Of a DNA stretch of 64,000 nucleotides, positions 333 to 61,600 are shown in pieces. The notes below the pieces were generated by a model, which saw nothing but the letters and a program-made list of their open reading frames with translations, was not told where the DNA came from and searched no databases. The position numbers were made by a program, and so were the translations under genes. The stretch's first letter is position 1, and each line of letters opens with the position of its first letter. This DNA is from a virus: positions 1 through 64,000 of IMG/VR virus record IMGVR_UViG_3300035703_000033, one strand, 5' to 3'.

Positions 333-627
333 ATTAGGTGTAGATGAAGATGAATTTGCATGGTGGGATATTGCAGCATGCTCTGGAATGAATACAAATT
401 TATTTTATGATACATATGAATCAGATATTAATATTGCAAAAAATATAGATCAGGCTTGCCTGTCTTGTCCAGTTATAGCTATATGTTATAAAAATGGAAT
501 TAAAAATAATGAATATGGTGTCTGGGGAGGAGTTTACTTAAACTCTGGACAACATGATAAACAAAGAAATATTCATAAAACAAAAGAGATCTGGAAGGAA
601 TTAAAAAAGAAGCATGCACAGATCTAA
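313..627 (+). CDS. whiB: WhiB-family Fe-S transcription factor
   Basis: Four Cys (AAC...ACLSCPVIAIC) and YGVWGG motif. Confidence 0.92.
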   Translation: MSSILNKLGVDEDEFAWWDIAACSGMNTNLFYDTYESDINIAKNIDQACLSCPVIAICYKNGIKNNEYGVWGGVYLNSGQHDKQRNIHKTKEIWKELKKKHAQI

Positions 628-16552: not shown

Positions 16553-16782
16553 TATTTCTCCTCGTCCCACTCTAGGTAATATTGGTCATTTGGATTTAAA
16601 TCATAAAACTGATTAAACCTACCTTTGATGTAATTATCATTTGACATTTCTGCAAATCTATAATCTGCATACATTTGACCTTCATCTAAATTAGACTGAA
16701 CCCAGTCTTCAACTAATTGTTCGCCAATCTCTTGATAGATTGCGTCGATAACCATTTGGTTTTCATTTTCTAAGAAACTCAT
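16552..16782 (-). CDS. hypothetical protein
   Basis: ATGA overlap with upstream gene. Confidence 0.65.
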   Translation of the reverse strand: MSFLENENQMVIDAIYQEIGEQLVEDWVQSNLDEGQMYADYRFAEMSNDNYIKGRFNQFYDLNPNDQYYLEWDEEK

Positions 16783-17558
16783 ACTTCCGCCTTTTCTGTA
16801 GATTCCAATAATACCATGTGGGTCTGACATTCTTTCATAGCCTCTTCATCTCGCCATGAACCCTCTTGGCATTCAGAGCAGAATTGACCACAGTCATTCT
16901 CACAATACTCAACACAATCATAAGATTGGCAAGCATAACAACGTGTTTCATATTCTAAGATTTCCTTAACATCACCACGAAGAATCTCTAGTTCTCCACC
17001 CCATCCTTGCTCCTCTTCATACTCTAATGTGAGCAGGCAGTTCGGAACTAGATTAGATAGTTTAGTTAGAATAGTTACAGCAGGAGACCATGCAGTCTCA
17101 TACTTATATACAAGCCAATGGTCATGACCTTCTGACTTATATTCAATTAGTTCTGTATTTGGATATTCATCTCCGTCACGGACGGCTACATCCCATTTGG
17201 TTCCCCAATTAGAATTATTCCATGAATACCAATCCTTCTGAGTTTTAGCAAACTCAACAGATTTGCGGAACCAATCAGGGTCTTTCATATCTACGCTATC
17301 ACGATTTGGTTGGCAGGCATACTCCTCATCAGTAATACCGTCATCCTTATATGAATGAATGTTGAAGAAAGCAAAGACAGGATTAGAATAAGTTACCTGT
17401 TGAATTTTGGTGGGGAAACCTGAAGATGAAATATCACCCATACCAAATGTCTCTTGTGCTAATGTAAATGGCTTATTCAGTCTATCTTTGATATAATCAA
17501 TTTCCTCTTTTGGACCTTGAATAGTCAAAGTGTTATATACCCAATTTGGCATTTGCAT
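16779..17558 (-). CDS. DUF1281/YubB-like protein with C-terminal Cys cluster
   Basis: MPNW..N.L.I.G, WYSWN..NWGTKW, YETAWSP. Confidence 0.8.
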   Translation of the reverse strand: MQMPNWVYNTLTIQGPKEEIDYIKDRLNKPFTLAQETFGMGDISSSGFPTKIQQVTYSNPVFAFFNIHSYKDDGITDEEYACQPNRDSVDMKDPDWFRKSVEFAKTQKDWYSWNNSNWGTKWDVAVRDGDEYPNTELIEYKSEGHDHWLVYKYETAWSPAVTILTKLSNLVPNCLLTLEYEEEQGWGGELEILRGDVKEILEYETRCYACQSYDCVEYCENDCGQFCSECQEGSWRDEEAMKECQTHMVLLESTEKAEV

Positions 17559-17728
17559 ATCCTTTCGTTGATATGGCTTAATTATATATCAGACCACTGA
17601 CAAATATCAATATCAAATTCGTGTGAATCACACCACATTGATCTAAAGCTGTCCCATTATATGGAATTTTCAGGAAATTTACTTGACATACGTAACAGAA
17701 ATATTGTACTCTCCGCTTTTGCGGGCAT

Positions 17729-17880
17729 AAAAAAAGATCCCCCAACTCTATACTATAAGCATTTGAGTGGGGGACTTTAAACAGGCTGCTTGGCCAAACG
17801 AAAGGAATTAAGTAAATGCCAGCATACTTAGCGACTTGGCGAATGCCTCATCAGCCGTACCTATTTTCCTAGTTACCTAG
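17729..17880 (-). ncRNA. candidate antisense sRNA with anti-RBS loop
   Basis: TGnTATAAT at 17886-17894, three-way-junction fold with G-U pairs, hairpin + U-run terminator; loop UUCCUUUCGUUUG. Confidence 0.65.
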
Positions 17881-17891
17881 GATTTATTATA

Positions 17892-18296
17892 TCATACTGG
17901 AAGAAGTTCGTCAGAATACTTCTCGCAGAAGGCGGACAGGTCCATGGTGAATAAAGCCTCATTCTTCATTCCCCTAACCTTGTTTGCCTGGTTTCTAAAA
18001 TCATCTTCCTCGTGAAGACTAAATGTTTGGTCTTTCCAATTAATCACAGGAATCTTATGCTCGTTATCTGAGATAGAATTCACCAGCAGGCCCCAGCCTG
18101 TAGCCATATTCCACTCGTCGCCAATCATCCTTGATGTAGCAATGCGTGTCGCATATGAATCGTCGTTCCACCGTGCACGTGCATGGACCACAGCATCTGC
18201 CAATCGCTTAAGCATGTCATGTCCAGCCCAGTGTCCGTATAGAACAATTGTCTCTCCGCTATCTTGTACAAATACGAAGTTTGCTCTGTCTCCCAT
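17892..18296 (-). CDS. hypothetical phage protein
   Basis: MGDRAN...LYGHWAG motif. Confidence 0.75.
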   Translation of the reverse strand: MGDRANFVFVQDSGETIVLYGHWAGHDMLKRLADAVVHARARWNDDSYATRIATSRMIGDEWNMATGWGLLVNSISDNEHKIPVINWKDQTFSLHEEDDFRNQANKVRGMKNEALFTMDLSAFCEKYSDELLPV

Positions 18297-18863: not shown

Positions 18864-19483
18864 TAGTACTCCACATCTGCATCTTCGACATCATAAGCAT
18901 CAATTACAATGTCACCATGGAATGAATCTAATGAAAGATTATCCTGCATAAAGTAACGAGCATCAAAGTCTTCAATCTCATCAAGAGGGCAGTCATAGCG
19001 AACCTCAAAGTTGATTGTTCCAGTAATTCGGATTTCCTGCTTTGGCTCATGACCAAGGATTTCACATAGGTCGTTAAGAACTTCTGCCTTCTCATAGTTA
19101 GGGTTGTACCAACCATCTGCAGACAAGTTATCTAGAATCTGACGAATCTGTCCGTTAGAAATTTCTAACTGCTGTTCCAGTCTCTTAATTCGTTCTAGTT
19201 TCCACTCAAGTTCATTAACCTTAAGTGTTGGGTATGTTGCTACACCGTCGACAATATCTTTGTATGTGACGAGGATATTGGCATCATAGTTTGTTGTTGT
19301 TTCCATTTGCTCCCTTTCGTTTGTTGGATATATTGTAGCATCAGCCACTGACAATAATACTAAAGTATTAAAACAAGATGGACAAAGCTCCTGGTCTATA
19401 GTACGATATGAATTTATAGTCATTTCAAATGACCCGTCGCAAGTTGGACAGATATATGAATGCTTATTCCATGTTGTTGTCAT
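18863..19483 (-). CDS. hypothetical protein with N-terminal Zn ribbon; nested in-frame start at 19306
   Basis: Leaderless ATG 19483; internal promoter 19332-19353 and AACGAAAGGGAG RBS before ATG 19306. Confidence 0.7.
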   Translation of the reverse strand: MTTTWNKHSYICPTCDGSFEMTINSYRTIDQELCPSCFNTLVLLSVADATIYPTNEREQMETTTNYDANILVTYKDIVDGVATYPTLKVNELEWKLERIKRLEQQLEISNGQIRQILDNLSADGWYNPNYEKAEVLNDLCEILGHEPKQEIRITGTINFEVRYDCPLDEIEDFDARYFMQDNLSLDSFHGDIVIDAYDVEDADVEY

Positions 19484-19613
19484 GCGGAATATTGTACACC
19501 CCACCACTGACAAATGTCCAGGATTTCAGGAAATTAATTTGTGATACGTAACACAATTTTTTGGCCTTTAGGTCTGGGGGCATCTCATTATGTGATACGA
19601 TAAATCTCATCCC

Positions 19614-20738: not shown

Positions 20739-20854
20739 TTTTTTCCTTTCGATTGATTGATTAACTGAGTATAACATAGGGGTCTGACATTATCAAGAAT
20801 TAATTGTAATATGTCCGCTTTGTCTGATGTGATCAATCTCACAAAATTTGGGAG

Positions 20855-21746: not shown

Positions 21747-21815
21747 TTTTTCCCTTTCGTTAGTTTGTTTGAGGTGATTATAGCAGGGGCTACTGACATA
21801 ACCCCTGCCAATCAT

Positions 21816-22583: not shown

Positions 22584-22638
22584 TTGTTTCCTTTCGTTTG
22601 TGTGGTGGGCTAGATTATACACTAGCCCACCGACATCT

Positions 22639-22890: not shown

Positions 22891-23160
22891 ATTTTTTACC
22901 TTTCGTTTGTTGTATGCAGATATTATAGCGTAACCCACCGACAAATATCTTTATTTAGGGCTATATGTCGTGTGATAAACCTCACAATTTTCAGGGTGTG
23001 TCGTAACTTGACGTAACAGGAGCCAGGCCCCCACAGTCTTTTGCGGGCAGCTTAGTCGTTTGTCAAATCGACACGCCGTTTATGTTTAACTTTTCTAGAA
23101 TATTTTTTCTTGGAGGGAATGGGTTGCGCCGCATTTGATCGACGCAACTCCAAAACCTTT

Positions 23161-23701: not shown

Positions 23702-23820
23702 TTTTAGTTTTCCTTTCGTTCGTTGTTGTTGCTAATTGTAGCAGAGAGGACTGACAAAGCCTCGGATTTACTTGCTTGGCGTGTCGCTAAAACATGCGCC
23801 TTGAATTCTTCTAGGTTCAT

Positions 23821-24149: not shown

Positions 24150-24401
24150 AAGTTGTCACCTTTCTTTCGTTTTGTTATGCTGAAATTATAGCCTAACGGA
24201 CTGACATTTTCAAATCCAAAATGCTACCAATTCGGACATTTTGAAAAAAATCTTTTGTGAATCACATCACACCGAAATGTCCGTTTTGTCTGTCAAATCG
24301 ACACGCCGTAAAATTCGGGACTTTTTATAACAGTCTCGTAACGACACGCCCGACGCCGCTGCTTTTGCGGGCCAGCTTGATTTTGTCAAGCCGACACGCC
24401 G

Positions 24402-29593: not shown

Positions 29594-31528
29594 ATGTCCA
29601 GTACAATCGAAAACCCATATGAAAATTTCATTGCTCTATCTAGATATGCTAGATGGATGCCAGAAGAAAATAGAAGAGAAACTTGGAAAGAAACTGTAGA
29701 TCGTTATTTTGATTTTATGCTAAATCATCTTAACGAAAATTATAATTATATTCCAGAAAATAGTTTAGTAGAAGAAATTAAAAATTCTGTATACAATAGA
29801 AATGTAATGCCATCAATGAGAGCAGTCATGACTGCAGGACCTGCTCTTGATAGAGACCATGTTGCAGGATATAACTGTTCATTTGTTCCAGTAGATTCTC
29901 CACGTTCATTTGATGAAACCATGTACATTCTTATGTGTGGAACTGGTGTTGGGTTCTCTGTAGAATATAAGTATGTTAATAAGCTTCCTGCTGTCCCAGA
30001 ATCATTTGAAAAGTCTACAACAGTAATTGTTGTTGAAGACTCAAAGACTGGTTGGGCAAAGGCTTATCGTGAACTTCTTGCAATGCTTTGGGCTGGACAA
30101 GTTCCTTCAGTTGATGTTTCTAAGTTACGTCCAGCTGGAGCAAGACTTAAGACAATGGGTGGGCGTTCTTCTGGACCACAGCCACTAATTAATCTTTTTG
30201 ATTTTACAATTGCAAAGTTTAAAGGCGCAGCTGGTCGTCAACTAAAGCCAATTGAAGCACATGATATTATGTGTAAGATTGGAGAGGTAGTTGTAGTTGG
30301 AGGAGTTCGTCGTTCCGCAATGATCTCTCTTTCTAATATCAATGATATTGAAATGGCAGCAGCAAAGTCTGGTAACTGGTGGGAGAATAATACCCAACGT
30401 GCATTATCAAATAACTCAGTAGCATATTCTCGCAAACCAGAAATGGAGCAGTTTATTGCGGAATGGAAAAACTTATATGACTCAAAATCAGGTGAGCGTG
30501 GCATATACAATGTTGCAGCAGCTCAAAAACAAGCAGCAAGATGGGGACGTAGAGATCCTGAAATTCATTATGGAACCAACCCATGCTCAGAAATTATCCT
30601 TAGACCTTATCAGTTCTGTAATTTATCCGAAGTGGTAATTCGTGAAGAAGATACAACTACAACTGTAGCAGAAAAGGTCAGACTAGCAACTATTCTAGGA
30701 ACATGGCAATCTACTTTAACAGATTTTAAATATTTGCGTAAAATCTGGAAAGATAATACAGAAGAAGAGCGTTTATTAGGTGTCTCGTTAACTGGTCAAT
30801 TTGGAAATAAATTCTTTTCTGGCAAAGAAGACCTATCAAAGCTTTCAGATGCATTGGAACGTCTTCGTGAATATGCTCGTGAAACAAATAAGCAAGAAGC
30901 TGAAAGAATTGGAATAAATGAATCAGCAGCAATTACATGTGTAAAGCCTTCAGGAACTGTTTCACAGCTTGTAGGAGTTTCTTCTGGAATGCATGCGTGG
31001 CATTCAGACTACTACATACGCACTGTTCGTGGAGATAAAAAGGATCCACTCTCTACATTCTTAAAAGAGGTTGGAATTCCAGTAGAAGATGATTTTATGA
31101 AGCCAAACGATACATATGTATTTTCATTCCCAGTAAAAGCTCCTAAAGGCGCAATCACTAGAAATCAATTAACAGCAATTGATCATTTAAATACATGGCT
31201 TGTTTATCAGAGGGCATGGTGTGAGCATAAGCCATCAATTACTGTTTCTGTAAAAGAAGATGAATGGATGGAAGTAGGGGCGTGGGTGTACAAGCATTTC
31301 GATGAAGTATCTGGAATTTCTTTTTTGCCACACTCAGACCACTCTTATAAGCAGGCGCCATATCAAGAGGTTACAGAAGAAGAGTACTTAGATCTATTGT
31401 CTAAGATGCCATCAAATATTCGTTGGGAAGATTTATCTTTCTACGAAACTGAAGACGGGACCAGTGGAACTCAAACACTGGCCTGTACTTCTGATGGAAA
31501 TTGTGAGATTGTGGATATTTCGGCATAG
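29594..31528 (+). CDS. nrdJ: class II (B12-dependent) ribonucleotide reductase
   Basis: PSMR, YNCSF, GGVRRSA, TNPCSEI, CNLSE, CVKPSGTVS, C-terminal C..(G)..C; no nrdB nearby. Confidence 0.93.
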   Translation: MSSTIENPYENFIALSRYARWMPEENRRETWKETVDRYFDFMLNHLNENYNYIPENSLVEEIKNSVYNRNVMPSMRAVMTAGPALDRDHVAGYNCSFVPVDSPRSFDETMYILMCGTGVGFSVEYKYVNKLPAVPESFEKSTTVIVVEDSKTGWAKAYRELLAMLWAGQVPSVDVSKLRPAGARLKTMGGRSSGPQPLINLFDFTIAKFKGAAGRQLKPIEAHDIMCKIGEVVVVGGVRRSAMISLSNINDIEMAAAKSGNWWENNTQRALSNNSVAYSRKPEMEQFIAEWKNLYDSKSGERGIYNVAAAQKQAARWGRRDPEIHYGTNPCSEIILRPYQFCNLSEVVIREEDTTTTVAEKVRLATILGTWQSTLTDFKYLRKIWKDNTEEERLLGVSLTGQFGNKFFSGKEDLSKLSDALERLREYARETNKQEAERIGINESAAITCVKPSGTVSQLVGVSSGMHAWHSDYYIRTVRGDKKDPLSTFLKEVGIPVEDDFMKPNDTYVFSFPVKAPKGAITRNQLTAIDHLNTWLVYQRAWCEHKPSITVSVKEDEWMEVGAWVYKHFDEVSGISFLPHSDHSYKQAPYQEVTEEEYLDLLSKMPSNIRWEDLSFYETEDGTSGTQTLACTSDGNCEIVDISA

Positions 31529-58692: not shown

Positions 58693-61600
58693 TGGCTGAA
58701 GAAAATATTATCACTAATATTACGGCAAGGGCTGACTTCTCAAGTCTTATAAAAGATTTGAATAGGGTAACGGCCTCATTGTCGTCCCTACAGCAAACAG
58801 TTGGCGCAACTAATAAAGCAATCTCTAGTCAAATAGATGCAATCAATAGAGGATTTGCAAATACAGTTAGAAGTACAGGACAGTTTTCTTCACACTATGT
58901 TTCTTTATCTTCAGATGTTGAAAAGTTTGGTAGAAGCCTAGACTCTGGAAGATTAAAACTAAAGGATTATTTTAGAACCTGGCAGGATCATACCAGAACC
59001 TCTGGCGGATTAATTAGAGATCTTGCAAAACAGCAAGTACAATTACAAAATGCAATCCTCCAGCCATTGGGACGAAATGCCCAAGGCTTAATGCAATTTA
59101 ATGTCCATGTTCCAAGAGGGCTTGATGTAATTAAAAATAAAACAGCTCTAACAACACAAGAGCTGAAGATTATGAATAAAGTTGTACAGGATGGAGCAGT
59201 ACAACTTATCAACTGGGGTAAGAATACTCAGTGGGCAGGACGTCAGCTTACAGTAGGTTTAACTCTTCCATTAGCAGCATTTGGTAAAGCTGCAGCAGAT
59301 GCATTTAGAAGTGCAGATCAAGAGTTAACAAGACTAACAAAGGTTTATGGCGATATAGCTGGTGCAACTTCAGCAGAGCTTGGGCAGATTAGAAATGATG
59401 TATCTAAGACTGCAAAAGAACTCGCTTCTAGCATGGGAGTTAATTTTCAAGAAACTATAGCGTTAGCAGCAGACATTGCGGCAACTGGAAAAACTGGAAA
59501 TGAATTATTATCTTCAGTTTCTGAAACAACTAGATTGGCAGTTCTTGGTGAAGTAGATAGACAAGAAGCTATGAAAGCAACTCTTGCAATACAGTCAGCT
59601 TTCAAGTCAAATACAGAAGAGCTTAGCCAGTCAATTAACTTTTTAAACGCAGTAGAAAACCAAACATCAACTACTCTTAATGACCTTGTAGAGGCTATTC
59701 CAAAGGCTGGCCCAGTTATTAAGGGTCTTGGTGGAAGTGTTCAAGATTTAGCTTTATATCTTACAGCAATGCGTGAGGGTGGAGTTTCTGCATCTGAAGG
59801 TGCAAATGCCCTTAAGTCAGCATTAGCTTCTTTAATTAACCCAACTGATGTTGCTGTTGCAAAATTTGAAGGGTTCGGTATAGATCTACTTGGTATTGTA
59901 AATAATAATGCAGGTAATGTAACACAAACTTTGATGTCATTACAAGGTGCATTAGATAAACTTGATCCATTGCAAAAGCAACAGGCAATTGAGCAGTTAT
60001 TTGGTAAGTTCCAATTCTCAAGACTTAATGCATTATTTGAAAACCTAGGAAGACAAGGAAGTCAGACGCTGCAGGTTCTTGATCTTATGAAGGCAAGCGC
60101 AGGAGATTTGGAAAATGTTGCAAGTCGAGAATTAGCAATGGTTACTGAATCAGCAGCAGGTAAATATAAGAGAGCAATAGAATCTCTAAAGGCTGACCTG
60201 GCTGGTGTTGGAGAGCAGTTCCTAAATATAGGAACAACAATAGTAACTGTATTAGATAATATTATTGATTTTGGTAAAAAGCTTCCAGAGCCACTTAAAA
60301 AGATATTAGCTTTTGGAACAGCATTCACTGCTATGGTAGGGCCAGTAATTATGTTAACTGGTTTGCTTGCAAACTTCTTTGGATACATAGTTAAGGGTGT
60401 TTTCCACTTTAAGTCGCTATTTAAGGGTGGAGAGGGATGGAGACTTCTAACTCCAGAAATTTTAGCTGCAGAAAAAGCAGGCTCTTTAGCAGAGCAAACA
60501 TTTTATAGTGATGCACAAGCCGCTACAATATTAAAGAAAGCATTAGCTGATTTATCAATGGAGTATGATGCTCTAGCAGCACGTCTTGCTTCTGGAAAAA
60601 TTTCAGTATCTCCAGCACTAACAACGATGGCTGGCTCAATAATTCAACCAGGATCTCCTGGGTATAGACCAGTAAATCCAAACCATCCTCTTGTTGGCGG
60701 AATGTCAAGCTCTCACTTAAATCCAAGAGACCCAAATAATCCAGCAACCCTATTTGGCCTAGTTCCAGGAGCCACTGGCGTAAATCAGAAAATCGGTAGA
60801 AATCCACAAATTATGATGGAGGAGAGGCTTCCAAATATTGAAGGCTTAACTTCTGTAGGTGGAGTTTCAACTGGAGTTGTAGCATCAGAGGCTGCTAGAT
60901 ATCAGGCACTTATGGCAACACTTGGAATGCAGTCTCAAAAAGAAATTGAAGATTTAAAGAAAACTATTAGAATGGGTGGAGCAGTAAGCTCTCAATTTAT
61001 TCAAACATTTGATGATATTTTGCCTTTAACAACTCAAATAACTCAAAATGTTGCAGCACAGTCAGCAGCAGTAATTGCAGAGCTAAGAGCTGGTAAGTTA
61101 ACTGTTGATCAAGCTAAGGCTCAAATTATTGCATTGAATGCACAACTTGAAGCAGATCTAGGTAGAACAGTAAGCGCATATGCTAGTTCAACTGGAAGAA
61201 GCATAGATTTAACTAGAGTGCCACTAATAGATCAGCCAGTAGTTGATGCAACTGGAAAGTCAAATATGAGAGCATTATTTAGAAAGGGCAGAATGCGTGA
61301 TATCATGCAAGCCCTTGGAAGAGCTACCAGAACAAGAACTATGGGTGCTCCATACAGCATAGAGACTACTAATCTGCCTAAGTTTAATACTGGTGGTCAA
61401 GTTTATGTGTCACCAGGAAGCGTTGTTCCTGGCCCTAACGTTAATGCGGATGTCGTACCAGCAATGCTTACTGCTGGAGAGTTTGTTGTTAATAGAGAAG
61501 CTACAGCAGCTAATTTACCATTACTACAAGCAATTAATGGTCAAGGTTCAAGGGGCCCAGGGTTTAATTTAGGATCTTCAAGAGAAATTAGAAACAGATA

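Follow-up and report, generated by a model that had tools for sequence, protein, structure and literature searches.

On the minus strand of the genome of an uncultured freshwater phage, recovered as IMG/VR virus record IMGVR_UViG_3300035703_000033, a conserved element of about 150 nt lies between a gene of unassigned function and a DUF1281-like gene, and the question it raises is whether it acts on this one neighbour, on a larger set of genes, or on neither. The source record is 109.6 kb long, with 36% G+C, and its first 64 kb are referred to here as the window, in which the element occupies positions 17729..17880. An earlier note on this sequence had proposed a small RNA (sRNA) whose loop is antisense to the ribosome-binding site and start codon of the DUF1281-like messenger, acting either as a trans-acting translational switch that shuts off early genes or as an antitoxin-like control of that single gene. 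The first of these proposals is supported in part: a structured minus-strand sRNA with a loop complementary to shared leaders stands up to comparison between relatives, and it is probably a trans-acting anti-leader RNA that blocks translation initiation on the transcripts of one promoter class, a shut-off of early genes being one form that such a block might take.

Structure and conservation of the sRNA

The minus-strand fold of the element has a minimum free energy of -53.6 kcal/mol (z = -3.99), compared with z = -2.70 for the plus strand. Its core (17777..17868, minus strand) is the three-way junction that had been drawn from the sequence of this phage alone, composed of helices P1 (17866-17859 with 17786-17779; AGGU/GCCU), P2 (17857-17853 with 17836-17832; CGGCU/AGUCG), P2a (17847-17845 with 17840-17838) and P3 (17824-17818 with 17794-17787, A17790 being bulged; UGCUGGC/GCCA-A-GCA), and this arrangement is kept by covariation in alignments of 51 and 70 distinct homologues. 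In a plain MAFFT alignment of 51 distinct cores, 92.5% of the cells at the 22 pairs of the junction are paired, against 28-46% when the partners are slid, and 180 cells carry a double change, against 21-64 for the slid partners. The corresponding figures for 70 distinct model-aligned sequences are 95.1% against 27-48% paired, and 263 against 7-62 double changes; the larger alignment leans to the covariance model, whereas the MAFFT alignment does not.

The letters of the junction are themselves conserved, with GGUGC..CU, UAAnUAAnGC and GCAGCC all invariant or close to it. One of the pairs is U.G throughout, and at several positions G.U, U.G and G-C replace one another. As G.U pairs would be A-C mismatches on the opposite strand, this pattern implies that the RNA is read from the minus strand of the window, which agrees with the strand that the G-U pairs of the single sequence had been taken to favour. 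The core is preceded by a 5'-terminal hairpin, CUAG-GUAA-CUAG (17869..17880, minus strand), and a hairpin of variable sequence holds the same position in relatives.

Of 73 distinct regions 5' of the DUF1281-like gene, 59 were found by nhmmer to contain the element, and a DNA pattern containing the loop is present in at least 120 IMG/VR contigs, with one copy in each, making the family an abundant one in freshwater viromes. The home genome likewise holds a single copy by the covariance model (67.8 bits). The only matches to Rfam 15 in the window at the gathering score are two tRNAs, and when E values of up to 10 are admitted the sole match is a terminator-like one to NsiR1, whose 16.9 bits fall short of the gathering score of 39. 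The sRNA is a member of a large undescribed family of predicted RNAs, absent from Rfam, in freshwater phages of Actinobacteria with genomes of approximately 105-116 kb.

Two local resemblances to known RNAs were rejected. A hammerhead ribozyme is suggested by the core heptamer CUGAUGAG at 17854-17847 (minus strand), in P2 and the adjoining junction; relatives read CUA-CCAG and similar sequences here, and no Rfam match is found. Mimicry of the 3' end of 16S rRNA is suggested by GGUGCGGCU and AAGUCG, which resemble helix 45 and its flank, yet these letters vary in the family and the small-subunit rRNA models give no match.

An invariant loop sequence and its complement in leaders

The apical loop of P3 is 23 nt long (17795..17817, minus strand) and includes a seed half, UUCCUUUCGUUU (17807-17796), within which CUUUCGUU (17804-17797) is invariant: it is present in P3 of all 51 distinct homologues recovered by an nhmmer search that did not require the motif. 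In the RNA of the window the energy needed to open the seed is 1.4 kcal/mol. The loops of the family fall into classes A, B, B1 and C, and in the last three the flanks of the 8-mer pair as a covarying closing stem (UAC/GUA, UUUC/GAAA and CCU/AGG), which leaves UUUCGUUG, with its YUNR-like UUCG, as the apical loop. A covarying structure that presents an accessible and conserved seed is what would be expected of a trans-encoded sRNA.

The complement of this seed is concentrated in the leaders of one class of promoters. Fourteen promoters of the form TGTCRG-N10-TAnnnT, in which the TGTCRG box lies approximately 10 bp 5' of the -10 element and not at -35, are found on the minus strand between 16232 and 25429, each followed by a leader of 15-32 nt. 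Eight of these leaders contain at least nine letters complementary to the seed half, 5-10 nt before the ATG, and they account for eight of the nine non-self sites of this kind in the genome. Similarly, AACGAAAG, the complement of CUUUCGUU, occurs nine times in the 109.6 kb, compared with 2.4 +/- 1.6 times in dinucleotide shuffles; of these copies, seven belong to minus-strand TGTCRG leaders, another is the reverse-oriented one of the sRNA gene, and the last lies inside a gene. The suggestion that the seed also matches the leaders of other genes is therefore confirmed, and the excess of complementary sites over chance at the translation-initiation regions of several mRNAs is again as expected of a trans-encoded sRNA.

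All eight predicted targets are on the minus strand. The leader of the DUF1281-like gene carries AACGAAAGGA at 17560..17569, ahead of an ATG at 17552-17550 and behind a TGTCAG promoter at 17602, and its predicted duplex with the sRNA is of -14.7 to -16.6 kcal/mol. A complete AACGAAAG is found in the leaders of open reading frames (ORFs) of 147 amino acids (aa) (19314..19321; start 19306; promoter 19353; -19.0 kcal/mol), 139 aa (21754..21761; start 21746; promoter 21798; -18.5 kcal/mol), 89 aa (22591..22598; start 22583; promoter 22635; -19.2 kcal/mol, with 13 contiguous complementary letters), 83 aa (22900..22907; start 22890; promoter 22943; -16.3 kcal/mol), 48 aa (23713..23720; start 23701; promoter 23756; -18.9 kcal/mol) and 67 aa (24164..24171, there followed by AAAGG; start 24149; promoter 24206; -12.3 kcal/mol). 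The remaining predicted target, the leader of a DUF932 gene, has AUCGAAAGGAA at 20745..20751, with one mismatch to the 8-mer (start 20738; promoter 20789; -15.2 kcal/mol). These duplexes, of -12 to -19 kcal/mol, compare with a genome-wide mean of -5.2 +/- 2.7 kcal/mol.

The complementarity to the DUF1281-like messenger had originally been described as consisting of two blocks, and both are exact in this phage: UCCUUUCGUU (17806-17797) is the reverse complement of AACGAAAGGA (17569-17560), and UGGCAUUU (17821-17814) is that of AAAUGCCA (17554-17547), around the start codon. Only the first block belongs to the conserved seed. The second is peculiar to this phage, its relatives mostly having GCGUUU in its place, and part of it, the UGGC, is inside the P3 stem. 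The gene itself (Pfam DUF1281_C; 16779-17552) starts at the ATG at 17552, giving a protein beginning MPNW that is conserved in 73 relatives, and not at 17558.

Correspondence of loops and leaders between relatives

A blastn comparison with GenBank phages found no similar DNA. Protein-anchored searches yielded 98 related loci; the relatives of the phage come from freshwater and river samples. Among the 640 unique TGTCRG promoter-leader units in these relatives the commonest 8-mer is AACGAAAG, present in 355 leaders. Aligned at their GAAAG, the leaders have A in 94%, A in 85% and C in 85% at the three positions 5' of it, and conservation is at background just outside AAC+GAAAG(G) on both sides. 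The borders are the same in leader and loop, and hence the conserved leader block is the exact complement of the invariant loop block. The search for loop conservation among homologues that the earlier note had recommended has in this way found the same eight letters conserved on both sides of the proposed pairing.

Pairing with the ribosome does not account for this leader block in full. The 3' tail of actinobacterial 16S rRNA reads ...CCUCCUUUCU, which cannot reach the AAC and would favour AGAAAGG instead; pairing with 16S rRNA therefore does not explain the AAC. The same argument, from letters beyond the reach of 16S rRNA, has been used for the start-associated sequences (SAS) of Cluster K mycobacteriophages (PMC3203893).

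More distant homologues were found with a scaffold pattern that ignores the loop and with the covariance model, and some of these have a different P3: CUGGGGGUGUU takes the place of the usual loop in relatives G001 and G004, a stub of 7-8 nt in G002 and L237, and CCUCGAAAA in L240. The complete relative G003 has no copy of the sRNA detectable by scaffold pattern or model. In the phages with another P3, or with no RNA, the main form of the TGTCRG leader is AAAGAAAGG. Where the loop contains CUUUCGUU, AAC precedes GAAAGG in 588 of 793 cases (74%), compared with 4 of 27 (15%) otherwise, an association for which the Fisher test, not corrected for phylogeny, gives 4e-10. Within the main clade, leaders of the form CGAAAG-GA make up 69% where the loop is UC-CUUUCG, and 22-28% in the other classes. 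CCCCCA is over-represented on the gene strand in G001 and G004 and was considered as a possible new leader tag; this was rejected, the copies being mostly in terminator hairpins.

The sRNA gene and its surroundings

Both ends of the transcription unit are where they had been placed on the evidence of this sequence alone. The predicted promoter (17886..17914, minus strand) consists of CTGACG, a 17-nt spacer and the extended -10 element TGATATAAT at 17894-17886, and its extended -10 form is of the host housekeeping type. The predicted intrinsic terminator (17729..17776, minus strand) consists of a GC-rich hairpin (17776-17736) and a U-run (17735-17729). The predicted sRNA, of about 150 nt (17729..17880, minus strand), has its 5' end inferred from the -10 element and its 3' end from the U-run. 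Among 78 distinct homologous flanks, TGnTAnnnT is found 23-36 nt 5' of the core in 59 (76%), and a hairpin with a U-run begins 0-10 nt past the core in 58; a TGTCRG box is found in none. An own promoter and Rho-independent terminator, with no conserved ORF on either strand, are further features that would be expected of a trans-encoded sRNA. The absence of a TGTCRG box from the sRNA promoter makes it likely that transcription of the RNA and that of its targets are controlled differently.

The gene that precedes the sRNA is a 134-aa ORF (17892..18296, minus strand; phrog_31860) with no assigned function. Its TGA stop codon overlaps the -10 element TGATATAAT, and the first terminator downstream of it is that of the sRNA, which may additionally be produced by read-through from this gene. 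Four river metatranscriptome libraries (2018) contain contigs that are identical to the window over 17781-18114 and bridge the stop codon of the 134-aa ORF. The DUF1281-like gene is matched at 90-99% identity by further contigs from river RNA libraries. None of the river RNA contigs covers 17633-17780; their 3' limits vary (17781-17824) and this gap is not taken as evidence. RNA-library contigs carry no strand, ends or level, and they were taken as signs of presence only. The identical contigs imply that a river contained this phage or a near-identical one, possibly in an active state.

Directly past the sRNA terminator, 17665-17725 (minus strand) contains a further block conserved in relatives, with GCCCGC, AAAAG, GAG(G)GTA, TTTACG and GTCAA, the first part of which sometimes forms a covarying hairpin (e.g. 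CCCUC/GAGGG).

The host of the phage is indicated by three of its genes. A WhiB-family gene lies at 361-534 (plus strand; Pfam PF02467, 40 bits), and a class II ribonucleotide reductase of 644 aa, encoded at 29594-31528 (plus strand), is approximately 68% identical to counterparts in Streptomyces phages. At 19483-19512 (minus strand) a TGTCAG-box promoter (19512) with the -10 element TACAAT is followed 7 nt on by the ATG (19483) that opens a 206-aa frame, apparently giving a leaderless mRNA, a form common in Actinobacteria. Taken together these point to an actinobacterial host.

Alternative explanations

A number of observations weigh against a role of the sRNA in blocking many leaders. In the genome-wide RNAduplex ranking leaders are enriched at the top, but several coding sites equal the best of them; as these sites score just as well, duplex energy alone was dropped as an argument and seed k-mers were used instead. 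The co-occurrence of loop and leader rests on only three to four independent lineages, and the leader position that would pair with the base after CGUU (leader position -3) shows no covariation with it (p = 0.67). About a quarter of the homologues, as judged from the 78 distinct flanks, are without a recognisable promoter or terminator, and the river RNA contigs show only the 5' two-thirds of the sRNA, contiguous with the upstream gene. Furthermore, the scaffold is conserved more widely than the loop and survives with a tiny or unrelated P3: in G002 (L230:1501-1573) the junction is kept and P3 is a 7-nt stub, and in G001 (L229:1501-1585), which has the loop CUGGGGGUGUU and no terminator, the scaffold sits directly before an ORF that starts approximately 15 nt 3' of it. 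That the junction letters outlive the seed suggests an additional protein or ligand partner, and some function of the scaffold that is independent of CUUUCGUU.

If this independent function were the main one, the scaffold would serve to bind or titrate a protein or small ligand, in the manner of 6S RNA, a sponge or a riboswitch, and the leader match would be secondary, either the by-product of an anti-Shine-Dalgarno sequence or a regulated add-on. This would account for junction letters that are invariant or nearly so and persist with a 7-8-nt stub or CUGGGGGUGUU in place of the loop, as so conserved a scaffold is seldom needed by base-pairing sRNAs. However, it gives no reason for an unpaired 8-mer to be invariant, for this 8-mer to complement the leader tag exactly and within identical borders, or for the tag to fade where the loop differs. 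If the RNA were a decoy for a protein that binds leaders, it would be expected to contain the tag rather than its complement, and no Rfam aptamer or ribozyme model matches; this explanation is considered unlikely. Somewhat less probable again is a cis-acting element, either the structured 3' end and terminator of the upstream operon or a leader through which read-through into the DUF1281-like gene is controlled or, in one long transcript, the ribosome-binding site of that gene is masked. The river RNA contigs that cross the upstream stop codon into the element, the position of its terminator as the first after the 134-aa ORF, the relatives with no terminator and the scaffold found immediately before an ORF in G001 would all fit such an arrangement. 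A riboswitch might be suspected from the aptamer-like conservation of the junction and from a terminator directly past P1, yet the next gene has its own conserved promoter approximately 125 nt further on. Against a cis-acting element there are also the extended -10 conserved just 5' of it in three-quarters of flanks, the presence of the tag on seven to eight dispersed leaders that each have their own promoter, and the situation in the closest relative (L002/L047; neighbouring gene 93% identical), where the RNA is kept although the leader of the DUF1281-like gene lacks both promoter box and tag.

This same relative speaks against the second proposal of the earlier note, that the sRNA is an antitoxin-like antisense controller dedicated to the DUF1281-like gene through its RBS and AUG blocks. 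The proposal has in its favour the exactness of both blocks in this phage and the position of the element beside that gene in most of the distinct upstream regions; the loop of G001 offers UGGGGG, complementary to a CCCCCA that abuts the AUG of its DUF1281-like gene, a match with an estimated chance probability of about 2%. However, most relatives lack the AUG block, half of which is contained in the P3 stem, this leader forms one of the weaker duplexes, no toxin-like property was seen in the Api92/DUF1281-like protein, and L002/L047 has the sRNA with no tag on this gene; we consider the proposal very improbable. Least credible is a feature that is not an RNA at all, either a translated plus-strand ORF or a stoperator-like site in the DNA. 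The plus strand contains AACGAAAGGA in inverted position with an ATG 8 nt on, which opens an 18-codon ORF that the earlier note had named as an alternative product, and asymmetric DNA sites are known in Cluster A mycobacteriophages (mentioned in PMC3203893). Only about five sequences, all of class A, have the CAU that gives this ATG, which classes B, B1 and C lack, and covariation with G.U pairs fits an RNA of the minus strand only, the plus strand folding less well.

Proposed mode of action and its implications

For the anti-leader RNA, the following course of events is proposed. The 5' hairpin and three-way-junction scaffold would present the P3 loop, whose invariant CUUUCGUU would pair with the 8-letter tag AACGAAAG where it overlaps the Shine-Dalgarno sequence GAAAGG in short leaders. 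Pairing would start at the loop and zip up through the flanking letters to 9-13 bp, covering the tag and the Shine-Dalgarno core. Such a duplex would occlude the binding site of the 30S subunit and might expose the mRNA to decay, so that a single RNA would turn down the translation of most TGTCRG-box genes, at least eight in this genome. Transcription of the RNA under a control separate from that of its targets would fit either a delayed shut-off or a throttle.

The timing of gene expression in lytic phages is usually credited to transcription factors and a few proteins, such as RegA and RegB of T4. If the proposed mechanism is correct, the sRNA would constitute an RNA-level regulon inside a virus, and this in a host phylum without Hfq. 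It also gives a concrete hypothesis for the unexplained start-associated sequences of actinobacteriophages (PMC3203893, PMC12699233), and the pair of tag and anti-tag could become a tool for translational control in Actinobacteria.

Comparison with known systems

The SAS of Cluster K mycobacteriophages provide the closest parallel to the leader tag. In describing them, the authors proposed that they bind an RNA or a protein, of phage or host, left open which of these it is and noted a single reverse copy per genome (PMC3203893), and their role was still open in 2025 (PMC12699233). Like the tag described here, SAS are short and asymmetric, cover the Shine-Dalgarno sequence in some of the non-structural genes and include conserved letters for which 16S rRNA offers no partner; almost all copies have one orientation, with a single one in reverse. 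They differ in being a 13-bp GGGATAGGAGCCC at gene starts, as opposed to AACGAAAGG here, and in belonging to another phage lineage with another genome size. The tag here is AACGAAAG(G), no sRNA has been described in Cluster K, and the likeness is one of functional analogy and not of membership.

In Mycobacterium phage Anaya, the sole reverse SAS is located in the apical loop, CCUCCUAUCC, of a GCGCGG/CCGCGC hairpin within a longer covarying stem. This hairpin lies within a 385-nt gene-free gap (L221:39683-40067, or 59682-60066 of the record; z = -4.0), which follows a conserved TAGACT element resembling a -10 sequence and is conserved in 135 Cluster K records, mostly unannotated. In Amohnition the loop variant is not compensated in the SAS copies of that phage, and SirPhilip is without an anti-SAS. 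The extension of the tag and anti-tag logic to Cluster K is accordingly a lead rather than a result. It is conceivable, if doubtful, that the sRNA is a modular guide, in which an ancient scaffold held by a phage or host partner carries an exchangeable P3 loop that reads a private start-associated tag. Were this the case, the same logic of a tag and its reverse copy would explain the Cluster K SAS, whose role has been open since 2011, and a tag with an anti-tag RNA would be a general way for actinobacteriophages to schedule translation.

The c4 RNA of phages P1 and P7 and the CI RNA of P4 (Rfam C4; reviewed in PMC12197685) are likewise structured phage RNAs, the loops of which pair around the ribosome-binding sites of phage mRNAs and block translation. 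They differ in that c4 is processed from an operon under its own control and serves the immunity of temperate phages, whereas the sRNA has its own promoter and terminator and would direct one conserved seed at seven to eight or more dispersed leaders of a large phage. It has no Rfam match to this type, and the second complementary block is not conserved.

Among chromosomal RNAs, the 6C sRNA of Actinobacteria, which belongs to the same phylum as the host of this phage, binds several mRNAs through its loops without a chaperone (PMC6486639). In both 6C/B11 (PMC6486639) and the cuckoo/CcsR RNAs of Alphaproteobacteria (PMC4615179), as is proposed for the sRNA, hairpin loops with a conserved pyrimidine-rich motif pair with the ribosome-binding regions of several mRNAs. 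The chromosomal RNAs, however, have C-rich loops of the CCUCCUCCC type on simple hairpins, whereas the sRNA is phage-borne, is built on a three-way junction and has in its seed a GUU that would read a private tag beyond the Shine-Dalgarno core.

The endoribonuclease RegB of phage T4 cleaves within GGAG and the repressor RegA binds near the AUG, both being proteins rather than base-pairing RNAs. They resemble the proposed system in that they bring about a post-transcriptional shut-off, encoded by the phage, at the ribosome-binding regions of many early mRNAs (reviewed in PMC3014915 and PMC9409239). The sRNA belongs to none of the c4/CI, 6C, cuckoo or RegB/RegA systems, and represents a new family of RNAs, the proposed regulation being of a known kind.

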